A stretch of DNA of 64,000 nt, from NCBI GenBank assembly GCA_048320885.1, contig JBLWFJ010000001.1:1477642-1541641 (forward strand). The letters run 5' to 3'. The position numbers and the translations under genes are program-made. Below are positions 3,838 through 53,420 of the stretch, piece after piece (position 1 is the stretch's first letter; the number at the start of each line of letters is the position of its first letter). This stretch comes from Nannocystaceae bacterium ST9. GTDB lineage: Bacteria > Myxococcota_A > Polyangia > Nannocystales > Nannocystaceae. Under the pieces are notes generated by a model. That model saw only the letters and a list, made by a program, of their open reading frames with translations, was not told where the DNA came from and made no database searches.

Positions 3838-3962
3838 TCAAACTTGCGAGACCCTTGGGAAGCGCTTGCGAAGACGAGGCCCCGCGAGCCTGGATGGCCC
3901 CCGAGCGAAGAATGAATGAGCGAGCGAACGCGAAGCGAACAGACGCGAAGCGCTTGCGAGGA
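3838..3962 (-). repeat. GC-rich interspersed repeat (REP/MITE-like family), inverted orientation
   Basis: Its reverse complement matches the 'cctcctcgcaagcgcttcgcg..ttcgcttcgcgttcgctcgctcattc' core seen at 6330-6400 and 53270-53330. Confidence 0.7.
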
Positions 3963-3965
3963 GGG

Positions 3966-4023
3966 GAGCTGGCCACGCCCGCGCCCAGGCTGCCCTTCGA
4001 TCACGGCGAGTATCGCTTGGTCG
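3966..4023. repeat. 58-bp direct repeat, copy 2 (encodes ELATPAPRLPFDHGEYRLV, a duplicate of the radical SAM C-terminus)
   Basis: Near-identical to 2441..2498. Together the copies flank the HExxH gene plus a REP-like element. Confidence 0.8.
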
Positions 4024-4096
4024 GTGCGACGACGGGTCGCACGACGAACTGACGCAGGGGACACGACGCTCGGGCTCGCGTGTTAGTAGGGCCGCG

Positions 4097-5038
4097 ATGT
4101 CGCTCGTACGCTCGAAGGTCCTCTCGCTCACGATGCTCGCCCCGCTCCTGTCGGGCTGCCCCGCCGAGGAGCCGCCGATGGAGCCGTTCAGCCTGCGCTT
4201 TGCCGCCAGCGCCGACGGACAGGAGGTCGGCTGCGGCAGCGAGATCACCGGGCTCGGGCCGATGGGGCAGCATGTCGTGCGGCCCGCGGATCTGCGCTTC
4301 TACGTCAGCAACCTGCAGTTCTTCGACGCCGCGGGCGAGCCGATCGAGCTCGAGCTCGACCAAGACGAGTTTCAGTACCGCAGCGAGGCCGGCGAGGTCG
4401 CGCTGGTCGATCTGACCGGCACCGTCGATGGCGCCTGCTCGGCCTCGGCGATCGCCTTCGCCGAGGGCACCGCTCGCACCCACACCGCGATCACCGGCAA
4501 GACCCACGTCGATCACGTGGCGCGGATCAGCTTCGAGGTCGCCGTCCCGCAGCGGCTCATGCAGGAGACGATCGCCGCGAGCACGGCCGAGGCCGCCCCC
4601 TCGCCGCTCGCCGAGCTGTACTGGTCGTGGGCGACCGGCTACCGCCACTTCGTGTTCAACTTCGAGGTCGACGCCGGCGGAGAGCTCGGCGGCGGCTACC
4701 TGCACATCGGCAGCCGCGACTGCGGAGTCGAGGGCTCGCTCGCGCTCGAGGACCGCGACGAGTGCGGGTTCATCAACAACCCGGCGGTCGAGCTCGACGG
4801 CTTCGACCTGCGCGCGAACACGGTCATGCTCGACATCCCCGCCCTGCTCGCCTCGCTCGACTTCATCTCGCCGATCTACGACCCCGAGACCTTCGAGCCG
4901 ATCGGCGAGGGTCCCGGGGTCGAGTGCCACTCGTCCCCGATGCAGCCCGACTGCGAGACGATCTTCACCAACGTCGGCCTCGACATGGCGTCCGGCAGCG
5001 CCAGCGCGACCGCCAACGCCGTGTTCTTCGGAGGCTGA
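4097..5038 (+). CDS. MbnP-like / 'metallo-mystery pair' four-Cys motif periplasmic protein
   Basis: Signal peptide with lipobox (LLSGC) and conserved Cys pairs. Immediately upstream of, and almost abutting, a di-heme CCP-like gene (stop TGA 5036-5038, next start GTG 5040). Confidence 0.55.
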   Translation: MSLVRSKVLSLTMLAPLLSGCPAEEPPMEPFSLRFAASADGQEVGCGSEITGLGPMGQHVVRPADLRFYVSNLQFFDAAGEPIELELDQDEFQYRSEAGEVALVDLTGTVDGACSASAIAFAEGTARTHTAITGKTHVDHVARISFEVAVPQRLMQETIAASTAEAAPSPLAELYWSWATGYRHFVFNFEVDAGGELGGGYLHIGSRDCGVEGSLALEDRDECGFINNPAVELDGFDLRANTVMLDIPALLASLDFISPIYDPETFEPIGEGPGVECHSSPMQPDCETIFTNVGLDMASGSASATANAVFFGG

Positions 5039-5039
5039 C

Positions 5040-6200
5040 GTGGATCGGCTCGCGTCGCTCATCGCCCTGCTCTCCACGCTCGTGGCCTGCGAGTCGCCCG
5101 AACCGGACGACCCGAGCGAGGTCGACGACGCGGCCCTCCGCGAGCTGCTCGGCGTCCCCGACCACTTCGTGACGCCGGCGATCCCGGCCGGCAACCCGCC
5201 GACGGCCGAGAAGATCGAGCTCGGCCGCCGGCTCTTCCACGACCGCCGGCTCTCGGGCAACCAGACCCAGTCGTGCGCCGACTGTCACCTGCAGGAGCTG
5301 GCGTTCAGCGACGGCCTGACGACCCCGACCGGATCGACCGGCACGCTGCTCGAGCGCAACAGCCAAGGCCTCGCCAACGTCGCGTACCTGCCCTCGCTGA
5401 CCTGGGCGAGCGACGGGCTGCTCGAGCTCGAGCAGCAGATCCACGTGCCGCTGACCGCCGACGCGCCAATCGAGCTCGGCGTGACCGACGGCATCCGCGA
5501 CGAGGTGCTCGCGCGCTTCGAGGACGACCCGGAGTACGCGGCGATGTTCGCCGCCGCGTTCCCGGACCTCGCGGGCGAGATCACGCTCGATCACGTCGTG
5601 TTCGCGCTGGCCAGCTTCTGTCGCACCTTGATCAGCGGCGCGAGCCCCTACGATCGCTTCTTGGCCGGCGACGAAGCGGCGCTGACCGAAGAGCAGCGGC
5701 TCGGCATGAGCCTGTTCAACGGCGAGCGCTTCGAGTGCTTCCACTGCCATGGCGGCATCAACTTCACCGCCGCCTACCGCGACGCGCGGCACGATCCTGC
5801 GGACCCGCGCCTGGTGTTCTTCAACAACGGCCTCTACGACGTCGACGGCGAAGGCAGCTACCCGGCCCACGATCAGGGCCTCTACGAGCTGACCTTCGAC
5901 CCCGACCACCGCGGCCTCTTTCGCCCGCCGAGCCTGCGCAACGTCGCGCTCACCGCCCCCTACATGCACGACGGCAGCATCGCGACCCTGCGCGAGGTCG
6001 TCGAGCACTACGCCGCAGGCGGCCGACTCATCACCGAAGGCCCCAACGCCGGCGACGGTCGAGTCAGCCCGCTCAAGTCGGGCCTGGTGCGCAGCTTCGA
6101 AGCGAGCGACGAAGAGATCGACGCCGTCGTCGCCTTCCTCGAAGCGCTCACCGACGAGTCGTTCGTGACCAACCCCGCGCTCGCCGACCCCTTCGAGTGA
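5040..6200 (+). CDS. di-heme cytochrome c peroxidase-family enzyme (MbnH-like, MXAN_0977-type)
   Basis: Two CxxCH motifs (CADCH, CFHCHGG) with spacing typical of the CCP/MauG fold. N-terminal signal/lipobox. Confidence 0.8.
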   Translation: MDRLASLIALLSTLVACESPEPDDPSEVDDAALRELLGVPDHFVTPAIPAGNPPTAEKIELGRRLFHDRRLSGNQTQSCADCHLQELAFSDGLTTPTGSTGTLLERNSQGLANVAYLPSLTWASDGLLELEQQIHVPLTADAPIELGVTDGIRDEVLARFEDDPEYAAMFAAAFPDLAGEITLDHVVFALASFCRTLISGASPYDRFLAGDEAALTEEQRLGMSLFNGERFECFHCHGGINFTAAYRDARHDPADPRLVFFNNGLYDVDGEGSYPAHDQGLYELTFDPDHRGLFRPPSLRNVALTAPYMHDGSIATLREVVEHYAAGGRLITEGPNAGDGRVSPLKSGLVRSFEASDEEIDAVVAFLEALTDESFVTNPALADPFE

Positions 6201-6202
6201 GG

Positions 6203-6580
6203 GGGGTCTGGTTTGATGGAGGGCGTTCCGCCGCCCTCCCCCGTGCCGAGCAAGCTCGTCACGGGTCCCCCTCCTCTGGTTTTTCTGGAGGCCCTTCCGC
6301 GGGCCTCCCCCGTGCCGGCGGAGCCGTCACGGGTCCCCCTCCTCGCAAGCGCTTCGCGCCTGTTCGCTTCGCGTTCGCTCGCTCATTCCTTTGCTCGGAG
6401 GTGAGCCAGGCATCGCATTCGCTCGCTCATTGCTTTGCTCGGAGGTGAGCCAGGCATCGAGCCTGGTCGCTTCGCGCTCGCTCATTCCTTGCTCGGAGGT
6501 GAGCCAGGCTTCGGGCTTGGTCGCTTCGCGTTCGCTCGCTCGGCGCGATCGCGTTCGCTCGCTCAGTGGAAGATCTCGTG
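6203..6580. repeat. composite GC-rich repeat block: two tandem hairpin units (ggaggSc-ttcc-gScgccctcc ...gtcacgggtccccctcctc) plus a ~40-nt unit x3 (cgctcgctcattcctttgctcggaggtgagccaggcatc)
   Basis: Direct inspection of the sequence. Shares a core with the repeats at 3838-3962, 33640-33990 and 53218-53420. Confidence 0.8.
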
Positions 6581-7678
6581 GCCGAGGCGCTCGAGTTCGG
6601 CGAGGGTGTCGGGGGGATCGACGTGGCGTGGGGCGGTCCAGATTCGCAGGCCTGGGCGGCTGGTCGCGATCGCGTCGATCGAGCGGCGGGTGCGGTGGCC
6701 GAGCTCGTGGATGCCGGCGTAGGTGGTGCACAGGCGATCGACGACGGCCCGGGCGGCCTCGCTCTCGCCGAGCTGGGCGAACACGGCTCGCTCGATTCGC
6801 TCGCGCGCCGGTGGGTCGGGCAGCTCGGCGTCGGTCCGGTTGAGCAGCACGGCGTCGATCCGCAGGCCGTAGGCGGCGAGCTGGTCGAGGAACTCGCGGG
6901 CCTCGCGAGCGGAGAAGGGTGAGGCGGTGGTCACCAGCAGCACGCCGGTCGCGGGGCTGCGCAGCAGTCGTTCGAAGTCGCCGCCGCGACGGTGGAACTC
7001 GCCGAGCACCTCGGCGAACTCGCGCAGGAAGGCGCCGAGGTCCCCGATGAAGTCGCCGCCGCCGATCTGCCGGAGCGTCTTGCCGAGCACCGAGCCGCCG
7101 AGCCCGAGGATCTTGGCGCCGACCCGGCCGGTCCCGGCCAGCAGGCGCGCGCCGGGGTTGTCGATCAGCTCGCGGACCTGCTTGGGCGCGTCGAGGAAGT
7201 CGATCGCGTTGGCGGTCGGCGGGGTGTCGAGGACGATCAGGTCGTGCTCGCCGGCGTCGTGGAGCATCTGAACGCGGGCCATCGCGGCGAACTCGAGCGC
7301 ACCCGAGAGCCGCTGGGCGGTCGCGCGATAGATCCGACTGGCGAGGATCTTGTCGGCGCTGGCCGGGTTGCTCGCGCAGGTGCGGACGATCGTGTCGAAC
7401 ACCTTGGCGCCGTCGAGCACGAGCGCGTCGAGGTGGCCGCCCTCGCGCCGGACCGGGACCAGCTCGCCGGTTCGTCCGCGCGCGTCGAGTCCGAGCGCCT
7501 GGGCGAGTCGGCGCGAGGGATCGATGGTCACGACCGCGACCTTGCGACCCTGGCTCGCGGCGTAGAGCCCGAGCGCGGCGGCGCTGGTGGTCTTGCCGAC
7601 GCCACCGGGGCCCACGCACAAGACCAGCTCGCGGCCGGGGAAGGGCAGGGAGGATCCTGTGGACGGCCTAAGGGGCAT
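6563..7678 (-). CDS. ArsA/GET3-family anion-transporting ATPase (SIMIBI P-loop)
   Basis: Deviant Walker A GPGGVGKTT. Start placed at the internal Met (MPLRP). The longer ORF reaching 7714 would overlap the divergent biotinyl-protein gene. Confidence 0.7.
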   Translation of the reverse strand: MPLRPSTGSSLPFPGRELVLCVGPGGVGKTTSAAALGLYAASQGRKVAVVTIDPSRRLAQALGLDARGRTGELVPVRREGGHLDALVLDGAKVFDTIVRTCASNPASADKILASRIYRATAQRLSGALEFAAMARVQMLHDAGEHDLIVLDTPPTANAIDFLDAPKQVRELIDNPGARLLAGTGRVGAKILGLGGSVLGKTLRQIGGGDFIGDLGAFLREFAEVLGEFHRRGGDFERLLRSPATGVLLVTTASPFSAREAREFLDQLAAYGLRIDAVLLNRTDAELPDPPARERIERAVFAQLGESEAARAVVDRLCTTYAGIHELGHRTRRSIDAIATSRPGLRIWTAPRHVDPPDTLAELERLGHEIFH

Positions 7679-7697
7679 GCAATAACCTCCCGGCGCG

Positions 7698-8252: not shown

Positions 8253-8259
8253 GCGCCGC

Positions 8260-10222: not shown

Positions 10223-10240
10223 CGCCTTGCGTCAGAAGGC

Positions 10241-16903: not shown

Positions 16904-18610
16904 TCAGGGGATGAAGATCGTCTCGGCCAACATGCCGCCCGGGTAGGCGTAGCCCGCCGAATAACTGGCGTTGGTGAAGGTCGAGTAGCCGTACTGGATG
17001 ATCCCGAACGAGACGTCGCCGTGGATCTCGTGCGCGCCTTCGACGATCGGCACGGTCGCGATCTCCCACGCGCCGACGCTGGTCCAGGTCGTGACCGTCG
17101 CGCCGTCGAGCACGATCGTCGCCGCGCCGGCCGGTCGAATGACCTGCACGTAGTGGCGATCGTAGGAGAAGCCGGTCACGAACACGTAGCGATCGAGGAA
17201 CTGCTCGATCGGGACCATCTGGACCATCGCCGGCGAGCCGACGTCGCCGGCCGCGTAGTGGCCCGCCGTGTACTGGACCGGCATGAAGGGCCCGTCGCCG
17301 TCGAACACCAGATCGGTGCCGGTCGGGACCTCGAGATCGAAGTAGTCGCCGCGGTTGGCCAGCACGAAGGGCGAGCCCGGCTGCGGAGGCTCGACGTCGA
17401 TCGTCACGTCGTCGGCGCCCGAGTAGACCCGCCAGTAGTGATTCTCGGTGTCGCGGACCGGCGAGGCCGGCCCGACGTAGAGCTGCCCCCAGGTCTCGAG
17501 CGGGAGGTTCTGCTCTTGCACGAAGTCGGATCCGCCTTGGCACTCGGCGAGGATCGGCGCGGGCGGGGCACAGCCGGGGATGGCCTGGTCGGTCGCGCAG
17601 TAGGGCACCCGCAAGCCACGGACCGCCGACATCACCCAGATCGGCTTGTCGGCGCTGACGACCGTGCCCGAGAGGTCCTGCTCGCAGGGCGGTCGATCGA
17701 GCTTCTGCGAGGTGTCGATGCGGACGTTGTCGAAGCGGTTGAGCAGCTGCTCGCCGATCTGCCCGCCCTCGACGTAGGGCAGCGGCAGCGAGTCGCCGGC
17801 GGTCTCGACCGACGGCGTCCAGCGCAGCGTGGTCTGATCTTCCATGGCGATGACGATGAAGTAGCTGGGCGTGACGTAGGCCGGATAGCCGTAGACGACG
17901 TAGTCGTTGCGCAGGACGTGCTCGGGCAGGAGCAGCGAGGAGCCGTTGGTGGAGGAGCCCTCGTAGGGCGAGTGCAGGTAGGCGACGATCGGGAGGTCGC
18001 TGACGACGTGCTGGACGGCGCCGGATCGGTACTGCGAGGTCTGCTCGGCGTACTCGGTCAACTCCGGGTCGAGCAGGAACACGTGGGTCTCGCCGGGGGC
18101 GAGCATGATTGGCCCTTCGGCCAGTTGCTCTTGGTTGGTTCCCTCCGGCACAAAACGCAACTCCACGGTTGCCAATGACTCCGGGTCGGGGTTTCCGACC
18201 ACGAGCGCGTCCGGCGGCAGCTCGGACAGTTGCGGGGCCGCCTGGTACATGCTGGTGGCGTAGAAGGAGCAGCCCTGCGAGGACGGCTGGTCGATGAGCT
18301 GCTCACAGGGGCCGACGCAGCTGGCGACGCAGTCGCCGTCCTGCTCGAGAAAGCAGGGCTGACACTCCTGATAGGTGTCGCACGTCCGGGAGTCCCATCC
18401 GAGCCCCGTGGCGGTGCAAGTCTCGAGGGTCTCGGAGTCCGCGCACCGAAGCTCACCGGGTTGGCAGACGAGTTGCGGGCCGTCGTCGGCGGCGGTCTCG
18501 GTGGATGTCGCGCCGGAGAAGTCGGTGGCCGCGACTTCGTCGTCGACTGGCGGGGAAGAGGGTTGGCAGGCGGAGAGGAGGAAGAGGAGCGCGCAGGCAC
18601 TCAAGCGCAT
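16904..18610 (-). CDS. Cys-rich secreted lipoprotein, unknown function
   Basis: Lipobox LLSAC. N-terminal myxobacterial-type Cys-rich repeats, followed by a large beta-rich domain. Confidence 0.5.
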   Translation of the reverse strand: MRLSACALLFLLSACQPSSPPVDDEVAATDFSGATSTETAADDGPQLVCQPGELRCADSETLETCTATGLGWDSRTCDTYQECQPCFLEQDGDCVASCVGPCEQLIDQPSSQGCSFYATSMYQAAPQLSELPPDALVVGNPDPESLATVELRFVPEGTNQEQLAEGPIMLAPGETHVFLLDPELTEYAEQTSQYRSGAVQHVVSDLPIVAYLHSPYEGSSTNGSSLLLPEHVLRNDYVVYGYPAYVTPSYFIVIAMEDQTTLRWTPSVETAGDSLPLPYVEGGQIGEQLLNRFDNVRIDTSQKLDRPPCEQDLSGTVVSADKPIWVMSAVRGLRVPYCATDQAIPGCAPPAPILAECQGGSDFVQEQNLPLETWGQLYVGPASPVRDTENHYWRVYSGADDVTIDVEPPQPGSPFVLANRGDYFDLEVPTGTDLVFDGDGPFMPVQYTAGHYAAGDVGSPAMVQMVPIEQFLDRYVFVTGFSYDRHYVQVIRPAGAATIVLDGATVTTWTSVGAWEIATVPIVEGAHEIHGDVSFGIIQYGYSTFTNASYSAGYAYPGGMLAETIFIP

Positions 18611-18858
18611 CCTCCAATCCTACAGAAATTTTGAACCGAGAGTCCGGCTATCTTTTGGGTTGCGAGGGTGGGCGACCGAGGGTACCACCCGTGAAGCGAA
18701 CTGCTTTTACCGTGGTCTGCATGACGTCACCTGACACGGCAATCGACGATTCCCATCGAACTCGAGCCGAATCGTAATCTTCTGAACCAATCATGATATT
18801 ATACTCGCGACGAAGCCGCGATCGATCCTTTGTCGATCGCCAGCTGCCCGCGAGGAAT

Positions 18859-19731
18859 TCAAGGAGCCAACGAAGGACAACCCAAACGCACGCTCATCCA
18901 GTACGTCCCCGCGGGGAACATCACATTACGCTCTCCCGCACAAAAAGCTCGCAAGGCTTCGGCATAGCAATTTCGCCATTCACGATACGCAAGAATCGCC
19001 AAGGTTCGAACATGGGCACACGTCGACGCAAACCTGGGTCGAACATGCAATGCCTGGCGCTCCCGCGGCGGCGCGTCGTTCCAGTGCTGCGCGAAGACCT
19101 TTCGCATGCCGATCACGGGCGTCTCGATGGCGACGTCCTCGGCCTCGCGCACTCGATCAGCAACCGCTCGCTGGAGCATTTCATCGTCGAGAGAGGCGTA
19201 GATTTCCGGCCGAGTCAACACGAGCGTGGCCCGAGCTGGCATGGACTCGCTGAAGAAGACACGGGGTCGTTCGATCACTCGGCGTGTTCCGTACGCCATG
19301 CCCATCGACGTCGAGCCCTCCCAATGCCGGGCCCGGGATACCAGTCGAGCGGCGACCGGGTTGGCGTGAACGTAGGCGAGACGCTGAAAGATGGAATCTT
19401 CGTCCAACAACTCGACCCCATTGAATGGCTCTGGATCCCAGAAGCTGCCGCTCCGCCCGAGCAATTCGTTCATGGCGCGTGCGACCATGGCGTTGAGATA
19501 TTGTGCGAAGTCCGAGATCTTGCCGAGCGGATCGGTGACGACCAGGTGGTAGTGGTTGCTCATCACGACGAACGCGTGGAGCTTCAACCCGAACGACGCA
19601 CACGCGAGAGCGAGTACATATTCGAAGATCTGTCGGACCGCAGGGTCGGGTCGGAGAAAGAACCGCTGCTCCGAGCATCGACGGGTCACGAGATAAGTCG
19701 GACCGGGGAGAACTCGCCGTGGTTGGGTCAC
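18859..19731 (-). mobile_element. IS200-like / HuH (Y1) transposase-family protein (possible REP-associated tyrosine transposase)
   Basis: SNHYHLVV HuH-like motif and a downstream conserved Tyr region. The gene lies in a lower-GC patch (18650-19800) flanked by AT-rich DNA. Confidence 0.55.
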
Positions 19732-19865
19732 GTGGAGTCATCGGCCGCTCCTCGTCGTCATTGCAGATATTTTACCATATCGAAACAGTGTCATCCAGCA
19801 CACGACCAGCCGCCGCCCCAATCCAGGACTCTCGGTCCGGAGAGGGCTGCGGTACCGTCTCCGAG

Positions 19866-22800
19866 GTGTCCGCTCCGGACCGCGTCCTGCAAGTGCTCCC
19901 CACGCGCGAGCGGGTCGCCGAGCTCCTCCGCGCCCGCGTCCGCCAGCGAGGTGCCGCCCTCGCCCTCGGCCTCATCGACCTGCGCAGCCTCGAAGACCGG
20001 CTCCTGCGCGCCAGCGGCATGCAAGTCGTCGGCGCCACCGAGGCTCGGCTCGCGCTCGGAGCCGTCGCCCCCGAAGCCGCCCGCTCCACCACCCTCGCCG
20101 AGCTCGCCACCCAGCCCGGCTTCGCCGACGCCTTCCTCGAACTCTGGGACGCCCTGCGCCGCGCGGGCATCGAGCGCGACGACTTCGTGCGCCTCGCCGA
20201 GCGGCTCGCCCGAACCAACCCCCGCTCGAGCCCCGGACCGAGCCTCTCGGCCCGCCGCTTCGAAGCGCTCGCCAAGATCGCCGCCGCCTACGAAGACCGC
20301 CTCGCCGCTCGCCAAGTCGTCGACGGAGCGGGCGCTCGCCTGCGCCTCCCGGCCGCGCTGGCCGAGCTGAGCCCGAGCCGGATCCGCGCCCTGCTCGACG
20401 GCGCGAGCGTGGTCGAGTTCGACGGGATCGGCGAGGTCTCGGTCGTCCGCGCCCGCATGCTGCAGGCGCTCGCGCGCGCGGACGTCCGCGTGCGCGTGCT
20501 GGTCCCCGAGGTCCCGCCCAACCTCGCGGCCGCCGAGCTCGGCGTGGCGCTCGAGCTCTCGCGCCGCAACCTGATCGACGAGGCCCCCGACGTCGAGTTG
20601 ATCGCCCGCCCGCTCGCCCGCGCGGGGCTGCTGGCCTTCGTCGCGCCCGGCTCGGCCCGCAGCCTGATCGATCCGCGGATGGCCCAGCGCATCCGCCTGC
20701 TCGACGCCGAAGATCTGCGCGCCGAGCTGCGCGGCGTGTGTGCGGCGATTCGCGATCTCCTGCACGCCGGCGTCGCCCCCCACCGGATCACGCTTGCGAT
20801 CCCTCGCCTGCCCTGGCACCGCACCCGCGTGATCGCGGCGCTCGACTCGGCCGAGATCGCCTGGGACGAGGCCCGCCCGCGCACGCTCGTCCAGCACGCG
20901 GCCCCGCTCCGGCTCGCGCTCGCGCTGATCGAGGCGGCCGAGCGCGGGCTCCCGCGCGAGGAGCTGGCCGCGGTGCTCGAGTCGGCCTACGTGATCAAGC
21001 GCGGCTCCTCGCTGCTGATCCAGGCCCTGCGCGAGGCCGGCTCGCGCGACGATCGAGGCCCGGGCCACCTCGCCCGCCTCCGCCAGCACGCCGAGCGGCT
21101 CGCTCGCGGATCGCCGCGCGAGCAAGACCGTGCGACCAAGCTGCTCGCGCTCGCCGACGACTGGCAGCGCCCCTTCGAACGCCTGAAGCTGCGCGACCAA
21201 GCGACGCTCGCCGATCACCTCGACGATCTGTTCGCGGCCCTGCGCACGCTCGGGGTCCCGCGTCGCTGCCTCAACCTGCCGGGCGTCGGCATGGGGGCTC
21301 GCGAGCGTCGCTTCGAACGTGACGCCGTGCTGGCGCTGGCCCGCGATCGCCAGGCCCTCGAGGCGCTCGAAGTCGCGGGCCACGGGCTGGTCGAGGCCGC
21401 GAAGGCGGTCGGGATCGCCGAGCGAGCGATCGGCCTGACCGAGTTTCGCGGCCACCTCGAGGCCGCGCTCGCGGGGCTGGCCGGACCGCCGCCGAGCGTG
21501 CGGGGCTCCGGCGTGGCGCTGCGCGACCTCGCCGAGTTCGCCGGCTCGACCACCGATCACCTCTTCGTGCTGCACGCGGTCGAGGGCGAGCTGCCCGGGC
21601 CCGGCCGCGCGCTGCCCTTCCTCGACGAAGACGATCGGCTCGCGCTCGATCGCGCCGCCGGCCGGCCCGTGCTCGCCCCGCCCGGCGCCGCCGATGCGGC
21701 CGCGTTCGCGCTCGCCTGCGCAGGCGCGCGCGAGGGCCTGGTGATCAGCTGCCATCGGCAAGACGGCGAAGGTCGCGAGCTGCTGCGCTCGCGCTGGTTC
21801 GTCGCGCTCGCCGACGCGCTGCGATCGACTCGCGAGCTGCCGGCCAGCGTGGTCGCCCCGCTCGCGCTCGCCAGCACGCGCGGCCAGGTGCTCGCGCGGC
21901 TCGGTCTGCAGGCCGCCCAGGAGGCCGAGCTCGACGGCCCCGCGCTCGCGCTGCTCGAGCTCGGCGTGCACACTCGGCCCGAGCTCGCGCGCGCGCTGGC
22001 CTGGATCCGTGCGCGCGCGTCCGATCCTCAGCGCGCGCGCGTCCGACTCGATCCGAGCACGCTGGCGCTGGCCCACCGCCTGCTCGACTTCGACGCGAGC
22101 GGCCAGCGAGCGGCGACGCCCGAGCAGGCCGGGCTGGTCTGGCGCGGCTCCGCGACCGCGCTCGAGCACTACGCGAGCTGCCCCTTTCGCCTGTTCGCCG
22201 ACCGCGTGCTGCGAGTCCGTCCGCGGCCCTCGATCCGCGACGAGCTCGACGCCCGCGAGCAGGGCCAGGTCCGCCACCAAGTCCTCTTCGAAGTCATGCA
22301 GGCGCTGCGCGAAGCCGGGCTCACGCCCTTGCGCGGCGGCGATCAGACCTGGCGAGAGAACGAGCTCGCGCTCGAGGTCTGCGAGGGCGTGCTCGATCGC
22401 TGGCAGGCCCGCGAGCGGACCGGACCGCGCGCGCTGTGGATCCTCCACCGCGATCTGGTCGTCCGCGATCTCCTGCGTCTGCTCGAGGGTGAGCGACGGG
22501 CGGCGATCGAGGCCTGGGAGCCCGAGCAATTCGAGCGCGGCTTCGGCCTGCCCGATCCCGCCGACGCCACCCGGATCGAGGGCGAGCCGCTGGCGATCCC
22601 CAGCCGCGAGGGTCAGCGCCGCTTCGAACTGGTCGGTCGGGTCGATCGGATCGACGCGCGCGGCGAGGGCCGCGAGCGCGAGGGCCTGGTCATCGACTAC
22701 AAATCCGGCCGAGTCGGCGAGCGTCTGCGCTACGACCAGCTCGCGCGCACCCAGCTGCAGCTGCCGCTCTACGCCGCGTGGCTGGCCGCCGTCCGTCCCG

Positions 22801-36882: not shown

Positions 36883-36883
36883 C

Positions 36884-36975
36884 CTTCACGGCCCACCGGG
36901 CCTGATCTTCACGGCCCACCGGGCCTGATCTTCACGGCCCACCGGGCCTGATCTTCACGGCCCACGACGCCTGAG
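36884..36975. repeat. 23-bp tandem repeat x4 (cttcacggcccaccgggcctgat)
   Basis: Three perfect copies plus a degenerate fourth, lying between the Roadblock gene stop and the aroQ start. Confidence 0.85.
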
Positions 36976-36990: not shown

Positions 36991-37530
36991 ATGCCCGAGC
37001 GCCCCCGCGTGCTGGTCCTGCACGGGCCCAACCTCGGCGCCCTCGGTACGCGCGAGCCCGAGGTCTATGGACGCGAGACGCTGGCCGACATCGACGCGAG
37101 CCTGATCGCGCTCGCTGCTTCGCTCGGTCTGGAAGTCGAGACCGCGCAGTTCAACGGCGAGGGCCAACTGATCGACCGCATCCACGAGTTCGCGGCTCCT
37201 GCGATCGCCCGTGCGCATGCCCAACGCACGATTGGCTCGGGAAGTGTGGATCCTCCGGCATCTCCCTCGGGCCCGCGCGGGCTCGTCCTCAACCCCGGCG
37301 GCTACACGCACACCTCCGTGGCCCTGCGAGATGCGATCGCGGCGGTCGAGTTGCCGACGATCGAGGTTCATCTGTCCAACCTTTACGCGCGCGAAGGCTT
37401 TCGGCACACATCGATCACCGGCGGCGCCTGCCGAGGCGTCATCATGGGCCTCGGCAGCGAGTCCTACCGACTCGCCCTCCACGCGCTCGCCACTTCCTTT
37501 CGGGTCCACGCGACCGTCCACGCGACCTGA
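36991..37530 (+). CDS. aroQ: type II 3-dehydroquinate dehydratase
   Basis: N-terminal VLVLHGPNLGALGTREPEVYG, HLSN, GACRGV. Contains a ~25-aa insertion relative to typical AroQ. Confidence 0.8.
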   Translation: MPERPRVLVLHGPNLGALGTREPEVYGRETLADIDASLIALAASLGLEVETAQFNGEGQLIDRIHEFAAPAIARAHAQRTIGSGSVDPPASPSGPRGLVLNPGGYTHTSVALRDAIAAVELPTIEVHLSNLYAREGFRHTSITGGACRGVIMGLGSESYRLALHALATSFRVHATVHAT

Positions 37531-45460: not shown

Positions 45461-46120
<660 letters not shown>

Positions 46121-46127
46121 GAGAGTC

Positions 46128-47378
<1,251 letters not shown>

Positions 47379-47497
47379 GGGAGGACGCCCGGCGTCCTCC
47401 CGGCTCCGTAGACCGAGGGGTGTCGCGGGCCGCCTCCTTGCCGAGCAAAGAAAGAGGGCGCCACCGGGCGCCCTCTTTGTTTTGGTCGATCGCTCGA

Positions 47498-48349
47498 TCA
47501 GTTGACGCAGGAGATCATGCCGCCGTCGTAGGGGTTCTCCGTGTTCGCGCAGGCCGGATCGCCCGAGCAGCCGCAGAAGCCGTCGGCGGTGCACACGTCA
47601 CCGGCGTTGCCGTCGACGCACTGCTGATCGTCCCCGCAGCCGCACACGCCGGCGTTGCAGACCGAGAAGTGCGGCTCGCCGATCGTGGCGCAGTCGGCAT
47701 CGGTGCCGCAGCCACACACGCCGGTGTTGGTGTCGCAGATCGGATAGGCCGCGCTCGCACAGTCGGCGTCGGCCTGGCAGGGCGAGAAGCAGAAGCCCTC
47801 GTCGTTGCATTCGGCGCCCGCGTTGCCGCAGACGGTCACGGGGTTTCCGTCGATGTCGGGGACCTCGAGCTCCGACCAGCCAGGGATCGTTTCGCACATG
47901 AAGAAGTCGCTCGGCGGAGTGGCACAGGCACCGCCGCCCTCGACCGCCACGCAGACCTGCGCGAGCGCTTCGCACTCGCCACCGCCGGAGGTGCAGGACG
48001 TCGTCCAGCCGCTGAACAGCGCCACGCACTCTTCGTTGCCGGTGCAGCCCTCCGTGGTCTCACCGGTGCAGACGTTGGCTTGGCAGGTCAGGCCGATGTC
48101 CTGACCATCGACCAGGCAGTCCGCGTCGGCGCTGCACTGGTGAACACAAAAGCCACCGTCGCCATCGCCGTCACCAGTAGTGTCGGCCGTGGTGTCGGCC
48201 GTGGTATCGGCCGTCGAGGTCGCGTCGTCGGTGCCGACGTCGTCGTCGGTCGAGGTCGAGGTGGTGTCGGCGTTGCCGTCGTCACTCGGGCAAGCCGCGA
48301 GCGGCAAGATCAACGCGAACGCGAGAAGCAGGGGGGATTGGGTCTTCAT
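47498..48349 (-). CDS. Cys-rich secreted lipoprotein (myxobacterial Cys-rich repeat type)
   Basis: Lipobox LAAC, Thr/Asp-rich linker, multiple CxxxDxDC-type repeats. Confidence 0.5.
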   Translation of the reverse strand: MKTQSPLLLAFALILPLAACPSDDGNADTTSTSTDDDVGTDDATSTADTTADTTADTTGDGDGDGGFCVHQCSADADCLVDGQDIGLTCQANVCTGETTEGCTGNEECVALFSGWTTSCTSGGGECEALAQVCVAVEGGGACATPPSDFFMCETIPGWSELEVPDIDGNPVTVCGNAGAECNDEGFCFSPCQADADCASAAYPICDTNTGVCGCGTDADCATIGEPHFSVCNAGVCGCGDDQQCVDGNAGDVCTADGFCGCSGDPACANTENPYDGGMISCVN

Positions 48350-48430
48350 GCGCGGAGGCTAGTTCGAGCTCCGCGCGATCACGACCCTCCTGCGGGTCGG
48401 GGCCCGATCGCGTGGGTGGGGGCTCGTCGA

Positions 48431-49225
48431 TCAGGTCTTGCGGCAACAGGCGAAGCGGAACGCGACCATCACCGTGTGGATCGGCTGCAAGCGGGTGTTG
48501 ATCCGCAGGTCATAGTCGACGCCGATCCGCACCATCGGCTCGCGGCCGAGGTTGAGGCCGACACCGACCACGCCACCGACCGCCGGCAAGGTTCGATCGA
48601 GGCGATGTCCGGTCGGCAACCCACCGACGGCGCCCACACCCGTGCGCAGATAGAAGGGCCCGACCAGCAAGGTCGAGGTCACGTCGGCGCCACCGGCCGG
48701 CGTCTTGCGCCCGTAGTAGGGCTGCATGTTGAGCGCGACGCCGAACGAGAGCGCGAGGTCGCGGTAGCGATGCTCGAGCGTGCCACCGAACTCCATCTCG
48801 AAGCGGGTCATCGGATGGAAGCCGCGGTAGTGCAGCGACATGCCGGGCGCGATGCCGAGTCCGAAGTAGCCGGAGCTCAGCTTCAAGGTGGTGCGCCGCT
48901 CGGGCTCGGGCGTGTAGGGCTCGCTCGGGTAGCTCGGATAGGGCTCGACGTAGTCGGTGGTGGCGACCGGATACTCGGTCGGAGCGACAGCCGGTGCGGC
49001 CGTGGTCGTGGTCGCCGAGACGTCGACCGGGGCGATCACGGGATCGCCCGCCGGGACGACCATCACGGGTTCGGGCGCAGGCGCGGGTTCGGGCGCGGGT
49101 GCGGCCTCGACGGCGGGGGCCGGATCGGCCGGCAGCGCCGGAGGGTCACCCGCGAACGCCAGGGTCGGGATCAACAGAGCAGCGAGAGAGGCGAAGGAGA
49201 CGGAGGCGATCGAGAGGTAAGCCAT
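48431..49225 (-). CDS. hypothetical secreted protein (Pro/Ala-rich N-terminus, beta-rich C-terminus)
   Basis: Signal peptide MAYLSIASVSFASLAALLIPTLAFA. GC3-rich frame. Confidence 0.4.
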   Translation of the reverse strand: MAYLSIASVSFASLAALLIPTLAFAGDPPALPADPAPAVEAAPAPEPAPAPEPVMVVPAGDPVIAPVDVSATTTTAAPAVAPTEYPVATTDYVEPYPSYPSEPYTPEPERRTTLKLSSGYFGLGIAPGMSLHYRGFHPMTRFEMEFGGTLEHRYRDLALSFGVALNMQPYYGRKTPAGGADVTSTLLVGPFYLRTGVGAVGGLPTGHRLDRTLPAVGGVVGVGLNLGREPMVRIGVDYDLRINTRLQPIHTVMVAFRFACCRKT

Positions 49226-49455
49226 GGTTGTCACTCGCTCGGGGTTCGCCGACGGAACGGGTCGGACCAGCATTCGCTTCCGGCAGACGTCGCTCGAGGT
49301 GATCACATGCACACGCACATCGGCCACATGCAGGCGTGGATCGCCCGTGCGAGAGTTTGCGCGTCGAACGGCGCTGGACACCTCGACCGCGAGCCGCTTC
49401 AATCCCGGTCCCTCCTGCAGCCGCTCTTGGCGGTGCCAGAACGGGAGAAACTCCA

Positions 49456-49814
49456 TGGCCAAGCAGTCTCCGCTCCAAAAGATCAACACGCAGTTCGGGT
49501 CCAAGAAGGACCTCGCCACCAAGCTCGCCGCCGTGCTCGAGCCGAACGAGGGCGAGTCCAAGGAAGACCTCGCCGCTCGCCTCCTGCACGTCGCCAACGC
49601 CAAGCTGATCCACCTCGAGGCGCTGGTCGGCAAGGTCGAGAAGCACGGTGGCCGTGCCGGCTTGATCGAGACGATCGCCAAGCACGAGCGCAAGCAGAAG
49701 GACGCGGACTTCCGCAAGAGCCTCGAGTCCCGCACGCTCGGCTGGCTGGTCGACCGCGTCGAGATGCTCGAGCATCGCGCCAAGTCCGCGAAGCCCGCGC
49801 CTGCGAAGCCCTGA
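49456..49814 (+). CDS. small hypothetical protein (119 aa, Lys/Glu-rich, helical)
   Basis: ATG preceded by GGGAGAAA. Coherent coding frame in a moderately lower-GC region. Confidence 0.4.
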
Positions 49815-50390
49815 CCGCGCGCTCGCGCGACAACGAGAGCCGGCACCCTTCGGGATGTCGGCTCTCGTCGTCTTGGATTCCGATGAGAGTGAAACTCGAA
49901 GATCGATTTCGAGCATCCCCGGCGCGCGTGACTACCGGAATTTCGGCATCACTGGAATATATCTCGTGAGTCCACGCGGGCCTTTCGACCAAATCTCTCG
50001 AATTCAAATGATTCAAGCCAATTTTCGGCGATCACCGATTTTCCGCTGAGACTGCACTTCGAGTCGACACGTCGAGACCGTTCCGCTATAAGTGTTCTCA
50101 GAAGACGGGCCCCACAAGGACGTGAGGCCGGTCAGGGACGACCACTCAGCCACGAAGAGGCCACATACCATGCGATTTCTCACTGACATGCTCCTTCGCC
50201 GCACTCGTGAAGCCTCGGATGTCGTCGTCGCCAAGCCGCGCGCTCGTGGCAAGTCGCCCCGCGCTCGTCTGCACGAGGACGCCTGGTTGATCCTGGGCTG
50301 ACCCGCCCAGCAGTCTCGGACTGCGGTCCCACGGCAAGGCCCGAACTCGCGCGAGTTCGGGCCTTCGTCCTTGGTTCTCGACTCTGGAGC

Positions 50391-52226
50391 TCAGCTCCGT
50401 CGGCGACGCAGCGGCAGCAGCCCGACCAGCAGGACCAGCCCCGCGAGCGAGCCCCCGCCCTTGCCCCCGCCCGCGCTCGAACACGAGCAGCCCGACTCGC
50501 CGCCCTCGTCGACGCCGGCACTGGTCTCGCCGACTTCGTCGTCGCCGGTCGCGTCGCTCGTGGAGTCGCCGGTGTCGCTCGTCTCGCCTCCGCTCGAGTC
50601 GGTGCCCGTGTCTTCGTCGCCGATCAGCCCGGTCAGCGGCACGCTGGCCGACGCCTCGGCGAGCACGATCGGCACGCTGCCGCCGATCGCATCGAAGGCG
50701 TCGGCGACATGCGTGCCGGCGTCGTTGGTCTGGTTGGTCTCGGCCAGGAACTCGAGGTAGCTCGGCGTGTTGATCCAGTAGAGCAGCCGGACCTCCAGCT
50801 CGAGCGTGTCGGGCTGGCCCGGGGTCTGATCGGCGAGCTCGACCGCCGCAAAGGCGTAGTCGATCGCGTCGACGTTGGGCCAGGTGTCGTCGGGCAGCAG
50901 CGCGTAGCGATCGCCGACCGGATCGGTCTCGGGGTTCGCGGTCAGGCCCTTGGGCGGGAGCCGGTTGTCGACCACCCAGTGATCGTTGAGCAGCAGGTGC
51001 AGGCTGGCCCCGTCCGACCAGCGCTCGGCGATCGCCTCGTAGCGACGGACCTGCGGATCGTCGGCGATCGTCCCGGCGGCTTGGTCCCACAGACCCGAGC
51101 TCCAGACCAGCTCGCCCTGGTAGCGGGCGCTGACCTCGATCCACATCACGCGGCCCTCGCTGTAGCCGGTCGGCAGCTTGTGTCCGGTCTCGTTGGTGAC
51201 CGTGACCGGCAGGCTGACCAAGCCCTCGCCGAGATCGATCGCGTCCGGGAACGCGACCTCGAGCGTGGCCGCGGTCTCGACGAAGGCCTCGGCCCAGCCG
51301 ATCGACTCGTCGAAGCGCCAGTCGGGCACCTCGCCGGTGCCCGCGTCGCCGTAGAGCGACTTGGCGACCTGCATGCCGCCGACGTTGGCCCCGACCAGCA
51401 CGTGCCGACGCCCGCCGCTCGCGTGCGGGGCCCCGGCGAACATGTTGCAGCCGAGCGTCGGGCTGGTGATCGCCGGCATGTGACAGTCCTGGCAGCTGCG
51501 CTGATCGGGCCCGGGCTCGGCGAAGTCGCTGGCCAACCACTCGCTGTAGGTGCGCTGCTCGTTGAAGAGCACGCCCATCCCGACCCCGCGATCGTCGACG
51601 CGCTCGCGCGGCGTGCTGACGTCGTGACAGGTCCCGCACATCCGCGAGCTGGGCAGGAACTCGAGATCCTGCGCCCAAGGATGCTGTGGTTCGGGCCCGA
51701 ACTCCTCGTAGGCCCAGGGGCCGCGGCGGGGGATCAGCTCGCCGACCGGTGCATCGCCGAGCACGAACTGCGCGTTGCCGGCCGGCGTCTCGCCGTCGTC
51801 GATCATCCGATGGCAGAAGTCGCACTCGATCCCGGCCCGCTGATCTTCGCTCAGCTGATCGAGCGCGATCACGTCGGCCTGACCGTCGAGGAACGCACGC
51901 GGCGAATGGCAGCGCACGCACTCCTCGGTCTCGCCGGGGACGGCCTGATCCTGGCTGGCGATCGCGACTCCGGCCCAGAACACCGGATCGCGGGCGCTGT
52001 TGCTCATCATCGATCCCTGCCAGGCCCAGGGCTCGACGCTGCCTCCGTTGGCGAGCTCGACCTCGTTGGTGAGGAAGTCGTGGCAGGTCGAACATGTCTG
52101 CGCCGGCTCGAGTGCCTGCTCGAGTTCACCGGGCTGGGTCGGCGTGGCCTCGACTCGACGCCCCCCGACGAGCAGGCCGAGCGGGAGGGTCAGGACCACC
52201 AAACCGATCGCAGAGCGCCGATGCAT
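50391..52226 (-). CDS. multiheme (5x CxxCH) c-type cytochrome with MYXO-CTERM-like C-terminal sorting tail
   Basis: Heme motifs CSTCH, CVRCH, CDFCH, CGTCH, CQDCH. Signal peptide. C-terminus GCSCSS-Gly-rich-hydrophobic-RRRRS. Confidence 0.7.
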   Translation of the reverse strand: MHRRSAIGLVVLTLPLGLLVGGRRVEATPTQPGELEQALEPAQTCSTCHDFLTNEVELANGGSVEPWAWQGSMMSNSARDPVFWAGVAIASQDQAVPGETEECVRCHSPRAFLDGQADVIALDQLSEDQRAGIECDFCHRMIDDGETPAGNAQFVLGDAPVGELIPRRGPWAYEEFGPEPQHPWAQDLEFLPSSRMCGTCHDVSTPRERVDDRGVGMGVLFNEQRTYSEWLASDFAEPGPDQRSCQDCHMPAITSPTLGCNMFAGAPHASGGRRHVLVGANVGGMQVAKSLYGDAGTGEVPDWRFDESIGWAEAFVETAATLEVAFPDAIDLGEGLVSLPVTVTNETGHKLPTGYSEGRVMWIEVSARYQGELVWSSGLWDQAAGTIADDPQVRRYEAIAERWSDGASLHLLLNDHWVVDNRLPPKGLTANPETDPVGDRYALLPDDTWPNVDAIDYAFAAVELADQTPGQPDTLELEVRLLYWINTPSYLEFLAETNQTNDAGTHVADAFDAIGGSVPIVLAEASASVPLTGLIGDEDTGTDSSGGETSDTGDSTSDATGDDEVGETSAGVDEGGESGCSCSSAGGGKGGGSLAGLVLLVGLLPLRRRRS

Positions 52227-52359
52227 GGCCGCGATGGTACGAGAGTCGGGAGCAGTTCGATTTGTGAGTTTTTGCGGTCGAGGCGAGTGATCGGCCCGAT
52301 GGCGGCGGTCGTCGAGCACGCGCGCGCATGATATGGTGCGCCCGGACATGCCCCCAGTC

Positions 52360-53214
52360 ATGCGCACGACTTCTTCGCGGTTGTTTGCTGGTTTGGTCGC
52401 GACGGCGTTGGTGCTCGGCCCCGTTCAGGTGGTCCACGCCGAGCCGCCGGGTGACACGGTCGACGAGCTGTTTCCCTACGGCCAAGAGAAGTTCGACGCC
52501 GAGGAATTCGGCGAGGCCGGCGACGCCTGGGCCAAGGCCGTTCGACTCCTGCCCGAAGACAAGAAGAACGCCGCGACCCGGCAGACGCTGGTCAACCTCG
52601 CGCTCGACGCCTACCTGCGCGCCTACAAGTCCAAGGACGATCGCACCTTCGTCGACGCGGCCAAGACCCTGCTCGACGACTACGAAAAGTCGCTGCAAGA
52701 CGCCCACGGCACGGTCGAGCTGACGCCCGAAGTCGCCGACGCCAAGCAGAAGATCGACGACGCGCTCGCCGACATCAAAGCCAAGGAAGAAGAGGCCGCG
52801 CGCCTCGCCGCCGAGGCCAACAAGGAGCCCGAGCCCGAACCCGAGCCCGAGCCCGAGCCCGACAAGAAGAAGCCCGGCACCGGCCTGATCATCGGCGGTG
52901 GCGTGCTGGTGGGTTTGGGCGTGGGCGGTGCCGGCCTGCTCATCGGTGGCGTGGTCGGTGCGGCGTCGGCCCAGAAGGCCAACGACAGCGCCGCGGACGA
53001 TTCGCCCGAGAAGGCGGCGGCGCAGAAGAAGGGCGAGACGATGAACGCCCTCGAGGTCGCCGGCGCGGTGACCGGGGCCGTGTTCCTCGGAGCTGGCATC
53101 GCGCTCTTGGTGATCGGGCTCAAGAAGAACAAGGCGGCCGCCAAGGGCAACGCGATGGTCGTTCCGACCTTCGGGCCCGGCTATGCCGGCATCGGCTTCA
53201 CGGGCCGGTTCTAG
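52360..53214 (+). CDS. hypothetical secreted/membrane protein with an (EP)n linker and Gly-rich TM segments
   Basis: Signal peptide, helical N-domain, EPEPEPEPEP linker, two Gly-rich hydrophobic helices. Confidence 0.4.
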   Translation: MRTTSSRLFAGLVATALVLGPVQVVHAEPPGDTVDELFPYGQEKFDAEEFGEAGDAWAKAVRLLPEDKKNAATRQTLVNLALDAYLRAYKSKDDRTFVDAAKTLLDDYEKSLQDAHGTVELTPEVADAKQKIDDALADIKAKEEEAARLAAEANKEPEPEPEPEPEPDKKKPGTGLIIGGGVLVGLGVGGAGLLIGGVVGAASAQKANDSAADDSPEKAAAQKKGETMNALEVAGAVTGAVFLGAGIALLVIGLKKNKAAAKGNAMVVPTFGPGYAGIGFTGRF

Positions 53215-53217
53215 CTT

Positions 53218-53420
53218 TAGGAGGCCCTTCCGCGGGCCTCCCCCGTCCCGGCGAAGCCGTGACGGGACCCCCTCCTCGCAAGCGCTTTGCGCCTGTTCGC
53301 TTCGCCTTCGCTCGCTCATGTCGCTCGGAGGCCGTCCAGACATCCCGGGACGGCGCGTCGCGGGTACCTCCTCGCAAGCGCTGCGCGCCCGTCGGCTCGT
53401 GTCAGGGTGCGCGGGCGCGC
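53218..53420. repeat. GC-rich interspersed repeat (same family as 6203-6580)
   Basis: The motif ggaggcccttccgcgggcctcccccgtcccg...gtgacgggaccccctcctcgcaagcgctttgcgcctgttcgcttcgccttcgctcgctca, followed by a partial second copy. Confidence 0.75.

Follow-up and report, generated by a model that had tools for sequence, protein, structure and literature searches.

A probable REP/BIME- or BOX-like family of double-hairpin intergenic repeats at transcript 3' ends in Nannocystaceae, separate from a RAYT-fold Y1 gene

Introduction

A 64-kb stretch of the genome of Nannocystaceae bacterium ST9 (referred to here as the window; about 70% G+C) carries short hairpin repeats between its genes together with a gene for a Y1 HUH transposase-like protein, and the question raised by this locus is whether the two belong together and, if they do not, what the repeats are. 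We examined the window and stretches from relatives. The explanation that fits best, and to which we give a probability of roughly 60%, is that the repeats form a lineage-restricted family (Nannocystaceae and relatives, Myxococcota) of modular, mosaic intergenic repeats that resemble repetitive extragenic palindromic (REP) sequences and bacterial interspersed mosaic elements (BIMEs) or the BOX elements, and that they are separate from the Y1 gene. The double-hairpin family is new within this known class and is notable for its two covarying hairpins and its polarity toward transcript 3' ends.

Structure of the repeat unit

When the 36 matches to the first hairpin (H1) in the window and in related genomes were listed in register, a common order of modules became apparent: a T-rich leader (TGGTTTTTG, CTTTT or CTTTA), H1, a directly adjacent second hairpin (H2), the block (G/T/A)CCCCCTCCTC and a pyrimidine-rich tail. 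H1 is a 22-nt hairpin of the form GGAGGSSS-TTCCGC-SSSCCTCC, with an 8-bp stem, a fixed TTCCGC loop and a fixed GGAGG/CCTCC base, and its inner stem is GCG/CGC, CCC/GGG or CCG/CGG. H2 comes in at least five unrelated sequences, each of them a near-perfect hairpin with a 6- to 12-bp stem and a 3-nt loop (CCCAGTTGGAC-GRA-GTCCAACTGGG, CCCGGGCCGGC-GRA-GCCGGCCCGGG, CCCCGC-TTC-GCGGGG, CCCGTGCCGGC-GGA-GCCGTCACGGG and CCTCAGCTCGC-TCC-GCGAGCTGAGG). There are at least two types of tail, tail A being GCAAGCGCTTCGCGCCTGTTCGCTTCGCGTTCGCTCGCTCAT followed by units of about 45 to 55 nt and tail B a reiterated CACTGCCCTNTCGGGCCGCTCACTCTGGTTCGCGGTC…, and units of 44 to 69 nt can be repeated in tandem. The build is thus mosaic, with a head (H1, H2 and the C-rich block) joined to tail A or tail B and tandem units of 44, 54 or 69 nt.

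The inner stem of H1 is complementary in 34 of the 36 matches, a property that the search pattern did not demand. Covarying pairs were counted on a structure that we supplied, since RNAalifold on a MAFFT alignment missed H2 as a result of the misalignment of stems of unequal length. Nine pairs had changes on both sides (41 cells), and the covariation score of 0.183, compared to 0.02 to 0.075 in slid controls, was reached by none of 500 shuffles. Both stems covary, which indicates that the hairpins are maintained as structures. A small coding open reading frame (ORF) in the tail (reverse-strand ATG…) was considered and rejected, because compensatory changes in the stems would fail to preserve a peptide.

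Copies are near-identical inside one genome, and the sequence of H2 varies between genomes and subfamilies. Partial and nested copies are frequent, with recurrent partial-H1 junctions and other modules upstream. One such junction, in which a partial H1 (GGAGGGCGTTCCGCC) is joined to GTTCGCTTCGCTCAC(TACTTCGTCTTTT) and then to a full unit, recurs at loci L002, L005, L015, L017, L018 and L020 and suggests a nested insertion, a deletion within the loop of H1 or the copying of a larger composite as such.

Repeat loci in the window and their dispersal among relatives

H1 (GGAGGSCSTTCCGCSGSCCTCC) has five matches in the window against 0.05 expected, at 6218, 6287 and 53220 on the plus strand, at 33958-33979 on the minus strand and, with three mismatches, at 33662 (+). 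The 28-nt tail core GCAAGCGCTTCGCGCCTGTTCGCTTCGC has three matches against 0 expected (3930-3957 on the minus strand, 6345 and 53278 on the plus strand), TTCGCTCGCTCA has six against 1.2 expected, and the segments 6287-6386 and 53220-53319 are 94% identical across 100 nt. Tandem Repeats Finder (TRF) reported a 69-nt unit repeated 1.9 times at 6217-6344 and 44/54-nt units repeated 2.2 times at 6369-6537. A covariance model of the head, run with filters off, found five head copies (49 to 80 bits) and one weak extra match at 47375-47439 (18.7 bits, E 0.02).

An earlier note on this DNA had described five or more loci with shared cores that were often tandemly reiterated and always lay between genes. 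We count four firm loci (3838-3962, 6208-6565, 33658-33984 and 53215-53400); a fifth, at 47375-47439, is doubtful because the match there is weak, and of the firm ones 3838-3962 holds only a tail. The sharing of cores stands far above chance; the tail fragment at 3838-3962 has no hairpins. The tandem reiteration is borne out by the TRF units, and all repeat loci of the window are indeed intergenic, that at 6201-6562 lying at convergent gene ends.

This last locus separates a CCP_MauG gene (+) from a convergent ArsA-like ATPase gene (-). Its first head unit (6208-6276, +, 71 bits) begins 8 nt past the TGA of the CCP_MauG gene (6198-6200) and consists of the leader TGGTTTGAT, H1 at 6218-6239 (17 nt past the stop), H2 at 6240-6265 and the C-rich tail TCCCCCTCCTC at 6266-6276. 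The second head unit follows in direct tandem (6277-6344, +, 77 bits), with the leader TGGTTTTTCT, H1 at 6287-6308, H2 at 6309-6333 and TCCCCCTCCTC at 6334-6344, and continues into tail A (GCAAGCGCTTCGCGCCTGTTCGCTTCGCGTTCGCTCGCTCAT) and then tandem 44/54-nt units (6345-6565, +), the last TTCGCTCGCTCA of which extends over the stop codon (6563-6565) of the facing ArsA-like gene.

Between co-directional genes at 53215-53433, a complete unit (53215-53319, +, 80 bits) is made up of the leader CTTTA, H1 at 53220-53241, which starts 5 nt past the TAG of the upstream gene, H2 at 53242-53266, ACCCCCTCCTC at 53267-53277 and tail A at 53278-53319. A degenerate second unit (…GGAGGCCGTCCAGACATCC…TACCTCCTCGCAAGCGCTGCGCGCC…; 53320-53400, +), a 70% direct repeat, comes next, with the ATG of the next gene downstream at 53434.

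The block at 33621-33991 has a tRNA-like gene (+) on one side and a minus-strand gene on the other and contains units in both orientations. The plus-strand head unit (33658-33721, 49 bits), on the strand of the tRNA-like gene and 43 nt beyond its CCA end, has a variant H1 (GGAGGCCG-TCCGC-CGGCCTCC, 33663-33683), H2 with an 11-bp stem at 33685-33709 and AACCCCCACCAC. The opposite unit (33790-33984, -, 62 bits) has a leader, H1 at 33979-33958, which starts 12 nt past the TGA (33992-33994) of the minus-strand gene, H2 at 33957-33943 (CCCCGCTTCGCGGGG), GCCCCCACCTC and tail B units (CACTGCCCTCTCGGGCCGCTCACTCCGGTTCGCGGTC…).

The tail-only fragment (3838-3962, -) is located between co-directional genes at 3828-4096, is antisense relative to both and consists of CCCTCCTC and tail A at 3962-3912 and then one further unit, H1 and H2 being missing. 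The exact spot of the missing hairpins is occupied by a 58-nt, 98%-identical copy (3966-4023) of the coding segment 2442-2499, which is in frame in the gene 1302-2576 (ELATPAPGLPFDHGEYRLV); this copy has the look of filler DNA left by a rearrangement or by repair. The possible diverged head at 47375-47439 (+), directly past the TGA of the gene 46128-47378, reads GGGAGGACGCC-CGG-CGTCCTCCC (47379-47401) and then …GCCGCCTCCTTGC.

A scan of the pattern GGAGGSSSTTCCGCSSSCCTCCCC across 185,579 species genomes gave at least 29 matching stretches. Among the matches listed were 15 loci on 15 contigs of the Nannocystaceae metagenome-assembled genome (MAG) JAMHUH01, 11 contigs of the Myxococcales MAG JANNHJ01, two sites in Paraliomyxa miuraensis and one chance match in a Planctomycetia MAG. 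Contig ends accounted for about 12 of the at least 29 matches, which is what a high-copy repeat would produce. The head covariance model found 30 copies in 205 kb of these relatives' stretches, on at least 26 contigs, and all family-type copies were extragenic. Since at least three further genomes related to Nannocystaceae carry the element, on many contigs, it is a dispersed, lineage-restricted family and not a local duplication confined to the window. No match to the repeat was found among viral contigs, phage records or plasmid records; Rfam gave nothing at threshold in the window except the tRNA-like match, and a permissive Rfam scan of 6150-6620 gave chance-level matches alone. We found no description in the literature of the double-hairpin repeat family or of Nannocystaceae ST9. 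For annotation, the units account for contig breaks and one synteny break in Nannocystaceae assemblies, and they are better masked, or labeled as a repeat family, than taken for genes.

Orientation of the units and transcript 3' ends

Stop-to-stop gene calling by G+C content at third codon positions (GC3) was too crude to orient the neighboring genes, and a local gene-end test (a same-strand stop no more than 150 nt upstream, at least 70 open codons and a GC3 of at least 0.8) was used together with manual reading. By this criterion, 21 H1 copies follow a gene end on their own strand at no more than 150 nt, and 11 of these do so at 2 to 17 nt. A same-strand gene end, 5S rRNA gene or tRNA-like gene was found upstream in 24 of the 27 assessable copies, the exceptions being the ambiguous L013, a solo H1 on the promoter side in L025 and the antisense tail fragment at 3838-3962. 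In L015 the element lies downstream of a 5S rRNA gene and its terminator, and the window copy at 33663 lies downstream of the tRNA-like gene. The unit is thus polar, with its hairpins next to the 3' end of a transcription unit on the same strand and its tail directed away. Where neighboring genes run in the same direction, the upstream gene is invariably the one that the hairpin end faces (window 53220, L001, L002, L009, L014 and L019), and between convergent genes each end may bear its own head, the tails meeting in the middle of the block (33663+/33979- and L018). Since both orientations occur in one 64-kb window and each matches its own upstream gene, orientation follows transcription and not replication.

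At two loci the frame of the upstream gene ends inside the repeat. In L003 a frame of 460 codons enters the element and reaches a TAG stop in the H2 loop (6270-6352), and in L005 (minus strand, about 3660-3700) the TAG is in the T-rich leader, after rare AT-rich codons, which indicates that the element has replaced or supplied the 3' ends of host genes. One reading is that the units are a transcription-polar mobile element that homes, always in the sense orientation, to the 3' ends of transcription units, sometimes providing the stop codon, by a mechanism tied to termination or to the transcript 3' end and not to a REP-associated tyrosine transposase (RAYT); we regard this as unlikely.

The sense strand of the tail contains 38% C, 24.5% T, 30% G and 8% A, with C exceeding G in 27 of 30 copies and T exceeding A in all 30. 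A pyrimidine-rich tail could possibly serve for Rho loading or as an unstructured 3' region, the excess of C over G being modest. A canonical intrinsic terminator was rejected for H1/H2, because no T-run lies 3' of the hairpins; the T-run instead precedes H1, and H2 is followed by CCCCCTCCTC. The ordinary terminators of ST9 are long hairpins followed by T-runs, for example, at 33381-33425 and 47451-47478. Unique long perfect hairpins with 13- to 19-bp stems and A/T-run flanks are found at gene ends at 29790-29832, 50336-50365 and 60619-60650, and these are probably ordinary bidirectional terminators, in contrast to H1/H2.

The REPs of Escherichia coli stabilize the upstream mRNA against 3' exonucleases. 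REPs that lie less than about 15 nt from a stop codon reportedly lower translation through ribosome stalling, an effect ascribed to work by Liang, Rudd and Deutscher in 2015. By analogy and from their position, effects on mRNA stability or translation are plausible for the present units too. With two covarying stems and an orientation that tracks the upstream transcription unit, the family is a clean case, well suited to the question of whether REP-like repeats persist through an RNA-level role at gene ends.

Alternatively, the units may not be selfish mobile DNA but primarily host-selected 3' untranslated region modules (a stabilizer of the mRNA 3' end, a stop-proximal brake on translation or a site of Rho entry and termination) that were spread and homogenized by recombination or gene conversion. 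The polarity, which includes RNA genes, agrees with this, as do the 11 copies within 17 nt of a stop codon, the covarying stems, the pyrimidine-rich sense strand of the tail and the presence of the element past orthologous genes of two species with flanks of just 79% identity. However, the hairpins have no T-run after them, canonical terminators are present in addition, and wobble pairs show no strand asymmetry, while the hallmarks are those of a proliferating repeat: near-identity within a genome and difference between genomes, truncated and nested copies, and assembly breaks. On balance, we find selection by the host as the primary explanation unlikely.

Relationship of the repeats to the Y1 gene

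The gene at 18859-19731 (minus strand) encodes a RAYT-fold Y1 HUH protein of 290 amino acids with the HUH motif NHYHLVV, a catalytic-type tyrosine in AYVHANPV and, at the C terminus, a conserved domain of about 145 amino acids. The earlier note had placed an IS200-like Y1 HuH gene in a low-GC patch here, and the ORF, the Y1 fold and the composition of the patch (57 to 64% G+C versus about 70%) were all confirmed. Classification by profile hidden Markov models (HMMs) gave 24.7 bits for Pfam Y1_Tnp (PF01797), above the cutoff of 23, and the best family match was NCBIfam NF047646 (REP_Tyr_transpos) at 60.1 bits, under the cutoff of 80. NHYHLVV and AYVHANPV are invariant in 26 homologues aligned across the full 290 residues, as are TRRC, W137, Y-x-x-x-N-P and MSNHYHL, which contains the HUH motif; conservation extends to the C-terminal half. 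Among solved structures, the best match in a profile search was E. coli TnpA-REP (PDB 4ER8); a single-sequence PDB search returned noise alone, and a PHROGs search gave no match. The Y1 family comprises at least 1478 clusters at 50% identity (E<=1e-30), and ST9 has four paralogues including 18859-19731 (the others being P0006, P0008 and P0106). Because these are just 41 to 64% identical, the gene looks domesticated and not like an insertion sequence.

Two assignments of the Y1 gene were rejected. An IS200/IS605 insertion sequence does not agree with the divergence of the paralogues or with a product of 290 amino acids with a conserved second domain, compared to about 130 to 150 for TnpA. The RAYT class was set aside since the score is under the NF047646 cutoff and the motif that flanks the gene (see below) is at background away from it. 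Compared to RAYT/TnpA-REP (E. coli YafM-type, PDB 4ER8) and IS200/IS605 TnpA, the product is twice as long, and its C-terminal approximately 145 amino acids have no match to a solved structure; unlike a RAYT gene, it is flanked by local inverted arrays of a nonpalindromic 17-nt motif and not by a dispersed palindromic repeat. A gene with an IgGFc_binding domain is close to the Y1 gene both in ST9 (16904-18610) and in Plesiocystis pacifica (L031, 13240-14925), a shared neighborhood that weakly hints at vertical inheritance of the Y1 locus.

The earlier note had regarded the pairing of the Y1 gene with the repeats as suggestive and had asked for copies flanking the gene as REP doublets, and here it was not supported. 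There was no H1 or tail copy in 18300-20300, the nearest copies being those that end at 6565 (some 12 kb distant) and begin at 33658 (some 14 kb distant), and the Y1 gene was not bracketed by a REP-like inverted pair. We likewise found no repeat copy in 501 kb around 82 Y1 homologues (L030 to L111, from metagenomes, a JGI contig and P. pacifica, and including two Nannocystaceae-type loci), and in 205 kb around 30 repeat copies there was no Y1 homologue by tblastn or profile HMM. Repeat copies are single or in direct tandem (6218 and 6287; two in L014) and are not inverted doublets; the sole inverted pair, 33663+/33979-, is about 300 nt apart, differs in H1 and H2, and has each member abutting its own upstream gene. 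No conserved GTAG-type 5' motif was seen beside the hairpin in the copies compared, the leader being T-rich. In characterized REP groups, a GTAG 5' tetranucleotide is said to stand beside the hairpin, reportedly from the studies by Ton-Hoang et al. and Messing et al. in 2012. In a published survey of RAYT groups, only Groups 2 and 3 had highly abundant flanking 16-mers.

With no copy by the gene, none by its homologues and no Y1 gene in the repeat loci, the pairing is unsupported, and the Y1 gene is probably an entity separate from the repeat family, either a RAYT-fold element or a domesticated gene with sites of its own. The gene itself, or one of the three other ST9 paralogues, may yet act on the repeats in trans, and in a full REP/RAYT system the Y1 protein or a paralogue would recognize single-stranded H1 DNA and disperse the units in this way. 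The REP_Tyr_transpos profile being the best family match (60 bits), the four diverged paralogues in ST9, of which the flanks were read for 18859-19731, and the nature of H1 as a short GC-rich palindrome with a conserved loop, which is a RAYT-type substrate, would all agree with such a system. We nevertheless consider it quite unlikely, given the distance of 12 kb, the absence of copies and Y1 genes from each other's loci, the single or direct tandem copies lacking a GTAG-like 5' motif, the score of 60 against a cutoff of 80, and a Y1 family that reaches far past the taxa with the repeat and has its own conserved flanking motif. The nearest RAYT-like gene thus fails to explain the repeat family.

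Turnover and nature of the repeats

Comparisons between genomes gave signs of gain, loss or replacement of the element, short of a clean proof of transposition. The MAG contig L017 is syntenic with 46752-53319 of the window at 79 to 95% identity, and the gene end upstream of 53220 has an ortholog there (flank 79% identical) with the same TAG. Both genomes carry the element at this gene end, and synteny goes no further than the element; the L017 copy differs from that of ST9 in its H1 and H2 variants and is accompanied by an additional partial H1. Of a pair of orthologous gene ends in the two MAGs, that in L004 bears a copy and that in L003 bears none, though the genes around them differ as well. 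Past the gene that ends at 47378, ST9 shows an H1-like hairpin where L017 has a terminator unrelated to it. At this last place (47379-48419 in the window, 628-713 in L017) ST9 has about 1 kb that is absent from the otherwise syntenic contig and that contains the H1-like hairpin past the stop codon, a canonical terminator and a gene for 283 amino acids on the minus strand, and L017 has an 85-nt spacer with its own terminator alone.

A further alternative is a miniature inverted-repeat transposable element derived from a DDE insertion sequence, with terminal inverted repeats, a target-site duplication and a preference for AT-containing sites such as stop codons (YTAR-like). CTAG, TTAA or TTAG is found directly ahead of many copies, and H1 units face each other at both ends of convergent intergenic blocks (33663+/33979-; L018), both of which fit such an element. 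Yet the distance from YTAR to H1 varies from 1 to 7 nt and the YTAR sites are the genes' own stop codons, a matching duplication at the other end was not found, and the facing H1/H2 units differ in sequence. Co-directional contexts, moreover, bear one H1, always on the side of the upstream gene, and there is no transposase gene near, all of which makes this origin very improbable.

The closest likenesses are to known interspersed repeats. Like the REPs and BIMEs of Enterobacteria and Pseudomonas, the units are short GC-rich palindromes that are extragenic and mostly at gene 3' ends and between convergent pairs, form mosaic clusters with other short motifs, vary in copy number and are lineage specific, with many near-identical copies within a genome and broken short-read assemblies. 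In contrast to REPs and BIMEs, they have no GTAG-type 5' tetranucleotide, are single or in direct tandem and not alternating or inverted (no REPIN doublets), combine two different consecutive hairpins with a long pyrimidine-rich tail and are strictly polar to the upstream gene, and no copy flanks a RAYT gene in the sequence examined. They share with BOX of Streptococcus pneumoniae (boxA-boxB(n)-boxC), with the enterobacterial repetitive intergenic consensus (ERIC) and with mycobacterial interspersed repetitive units (MIRUs) a modular head-middle-tail build with a variably reiterated middle or tail, an intergenic position, a strong predicted secondary structure and the lack of coding capacity or a known transposase, and the overlap of some copies with a neighboring gene's stop codon is a trait of MIRUs as well. 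They differ from BOX, the mobility of which is itself inferred, in having no sequence similarity to it, another host phylum, 70% G+C and different modules.

For the family of REP/BIME- or BOX-like repeats that we favor, we picture units that are, or recently were, nonautonomous mobile DNA dependent for its copying on an enzyme from another genomic locus and that would persist at transcript 3' ends because insertion is tolerated there. Once in place, they would probably act as stable 3' hairpins that form a barrier to 3' exonucleases, and effects on the ribosome or on termination may occur where the hairpin is within about 15 nt of a stop codon.

Several observations weigh against this explanation. 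Two copies violate the polarity rule, namely, the solo H1 of L025 and the fragment at 3838-3962, which is a tail alone. When the two strands were folded, they had 56 and 48 G-U pairs, with no asymmetry between sense and antisense, which favors neither RNA nor single-stranded DNA as the selected form. A consensus terminator scan gave no terminator-like site at the H1/H2 hairpins, and the canonical terminators beside the element (47451-47478; L015) make a terminator role unneeded at those sites. We infer mobility indirectly, since no clean filled-versus-empty pair with identical flanks was found among the available loci, and terminal inverted repeats or target-site duplications were not definable from the copies compared. 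No mobilizing enzyme was identified, the 205 kb of repeat-bearing loci having no Y1 homologue. Finally, copies were counted within the 64-kb window for ST9 and in selected 8-kb stretches for the relatives.

Flanking motif of the Y1 family

The Y1 family has a conserved flanking motif of its own, with the 17-nt consensus A(T/G)TACYCTCGGTCSGGG. On the gene strand, its core AC[CT]CTCGG occurs at 1.67/kb in the 900 nt downstream of Y1 homologues, and the reverse complement occurs at 1.58/kb in the 600 nt upstream. Elsewhere in the loci the frequency is 0.04 to 0.10/kb, which is about chance (0.04 to 0.07/kb in 402 kb away from the gene), giving an enrichment over the rest of the loci (L030 to L111) of about 20- to 40-fold. 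Upstream there are 1 to 6 copies, inverted, at -50 to -350, and downstream there are arrays of 1 to 10 copies after a spacer of about 250 to 320 nt. The spacer was compared for a conserved RNA or ORF, and only close relatives align in it; Rfam gave no match on the Y1 flanks.

ACYCTCGGK has four matches in the window, three of which are at the flanks of the Y1 gene in the arrangement of the family and bracket the lower-GC patch. Two are past the coding end (18862) on the gene strand (18635-18683, -), namely, ACTCTCGGT at 18643-18635 and ACCCTCGGT at 18683-18675, at distances of 179 and 219 nt. The third is inverted (19828-19836, +), about 100 nt upstream of the Y1 start, in the 5' arm region of a 13-nt inverted repeat (19833-19845/19870-19882).

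Judged by its distribution, the motif is local and not dispersed, and it resembles the ends of a multisite element or iterons more than it does REPs. The Y1 family with its 17-nt arrays could represent a Y1 element of a kind not yet described or, alternatively, a Y1 system that has been domesticated and has multisite ends, and a literature search, which was not exhaustive, found no account of the motif. It could provide a testable lead on what RAYT-like proteins without REPs bind.

Other features of the window

The tRNA-like sequence at 33549-33620 matched the Rfam tRNA model with 44 bits and was not reported by ARAGORN. Its anticodon is GUC (Asp) and its CCA end is encoded, but position 33 is A in place of U, the anticodon stem contains one mismatched pair, and the acceptor stem has three positions unpaired at its top. 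This is probably a degenerate copy or a pseudo-tRNA. The sequence upstream of it, at 33420-33540, is AT-rich.

The gene at 30645-33356 (+) encodes a protein of 903 amino acids with Pfam matches to Vault_3 (major vault protein [MVP] repeat) and to the MVP shoulder domain, which makes it a bacterial MVP-like gene, and the terminator downstream of it at 33381-33425 has a perfect 20-bp stem. At 36879-36965, just upstream of the ORF 36991-37530, there is a 23-nt tandem repeat (CTGATCTTCACGGCCCACCGGGC, 3.8 copies, 98% identity) that is unrelated to the H1 family.

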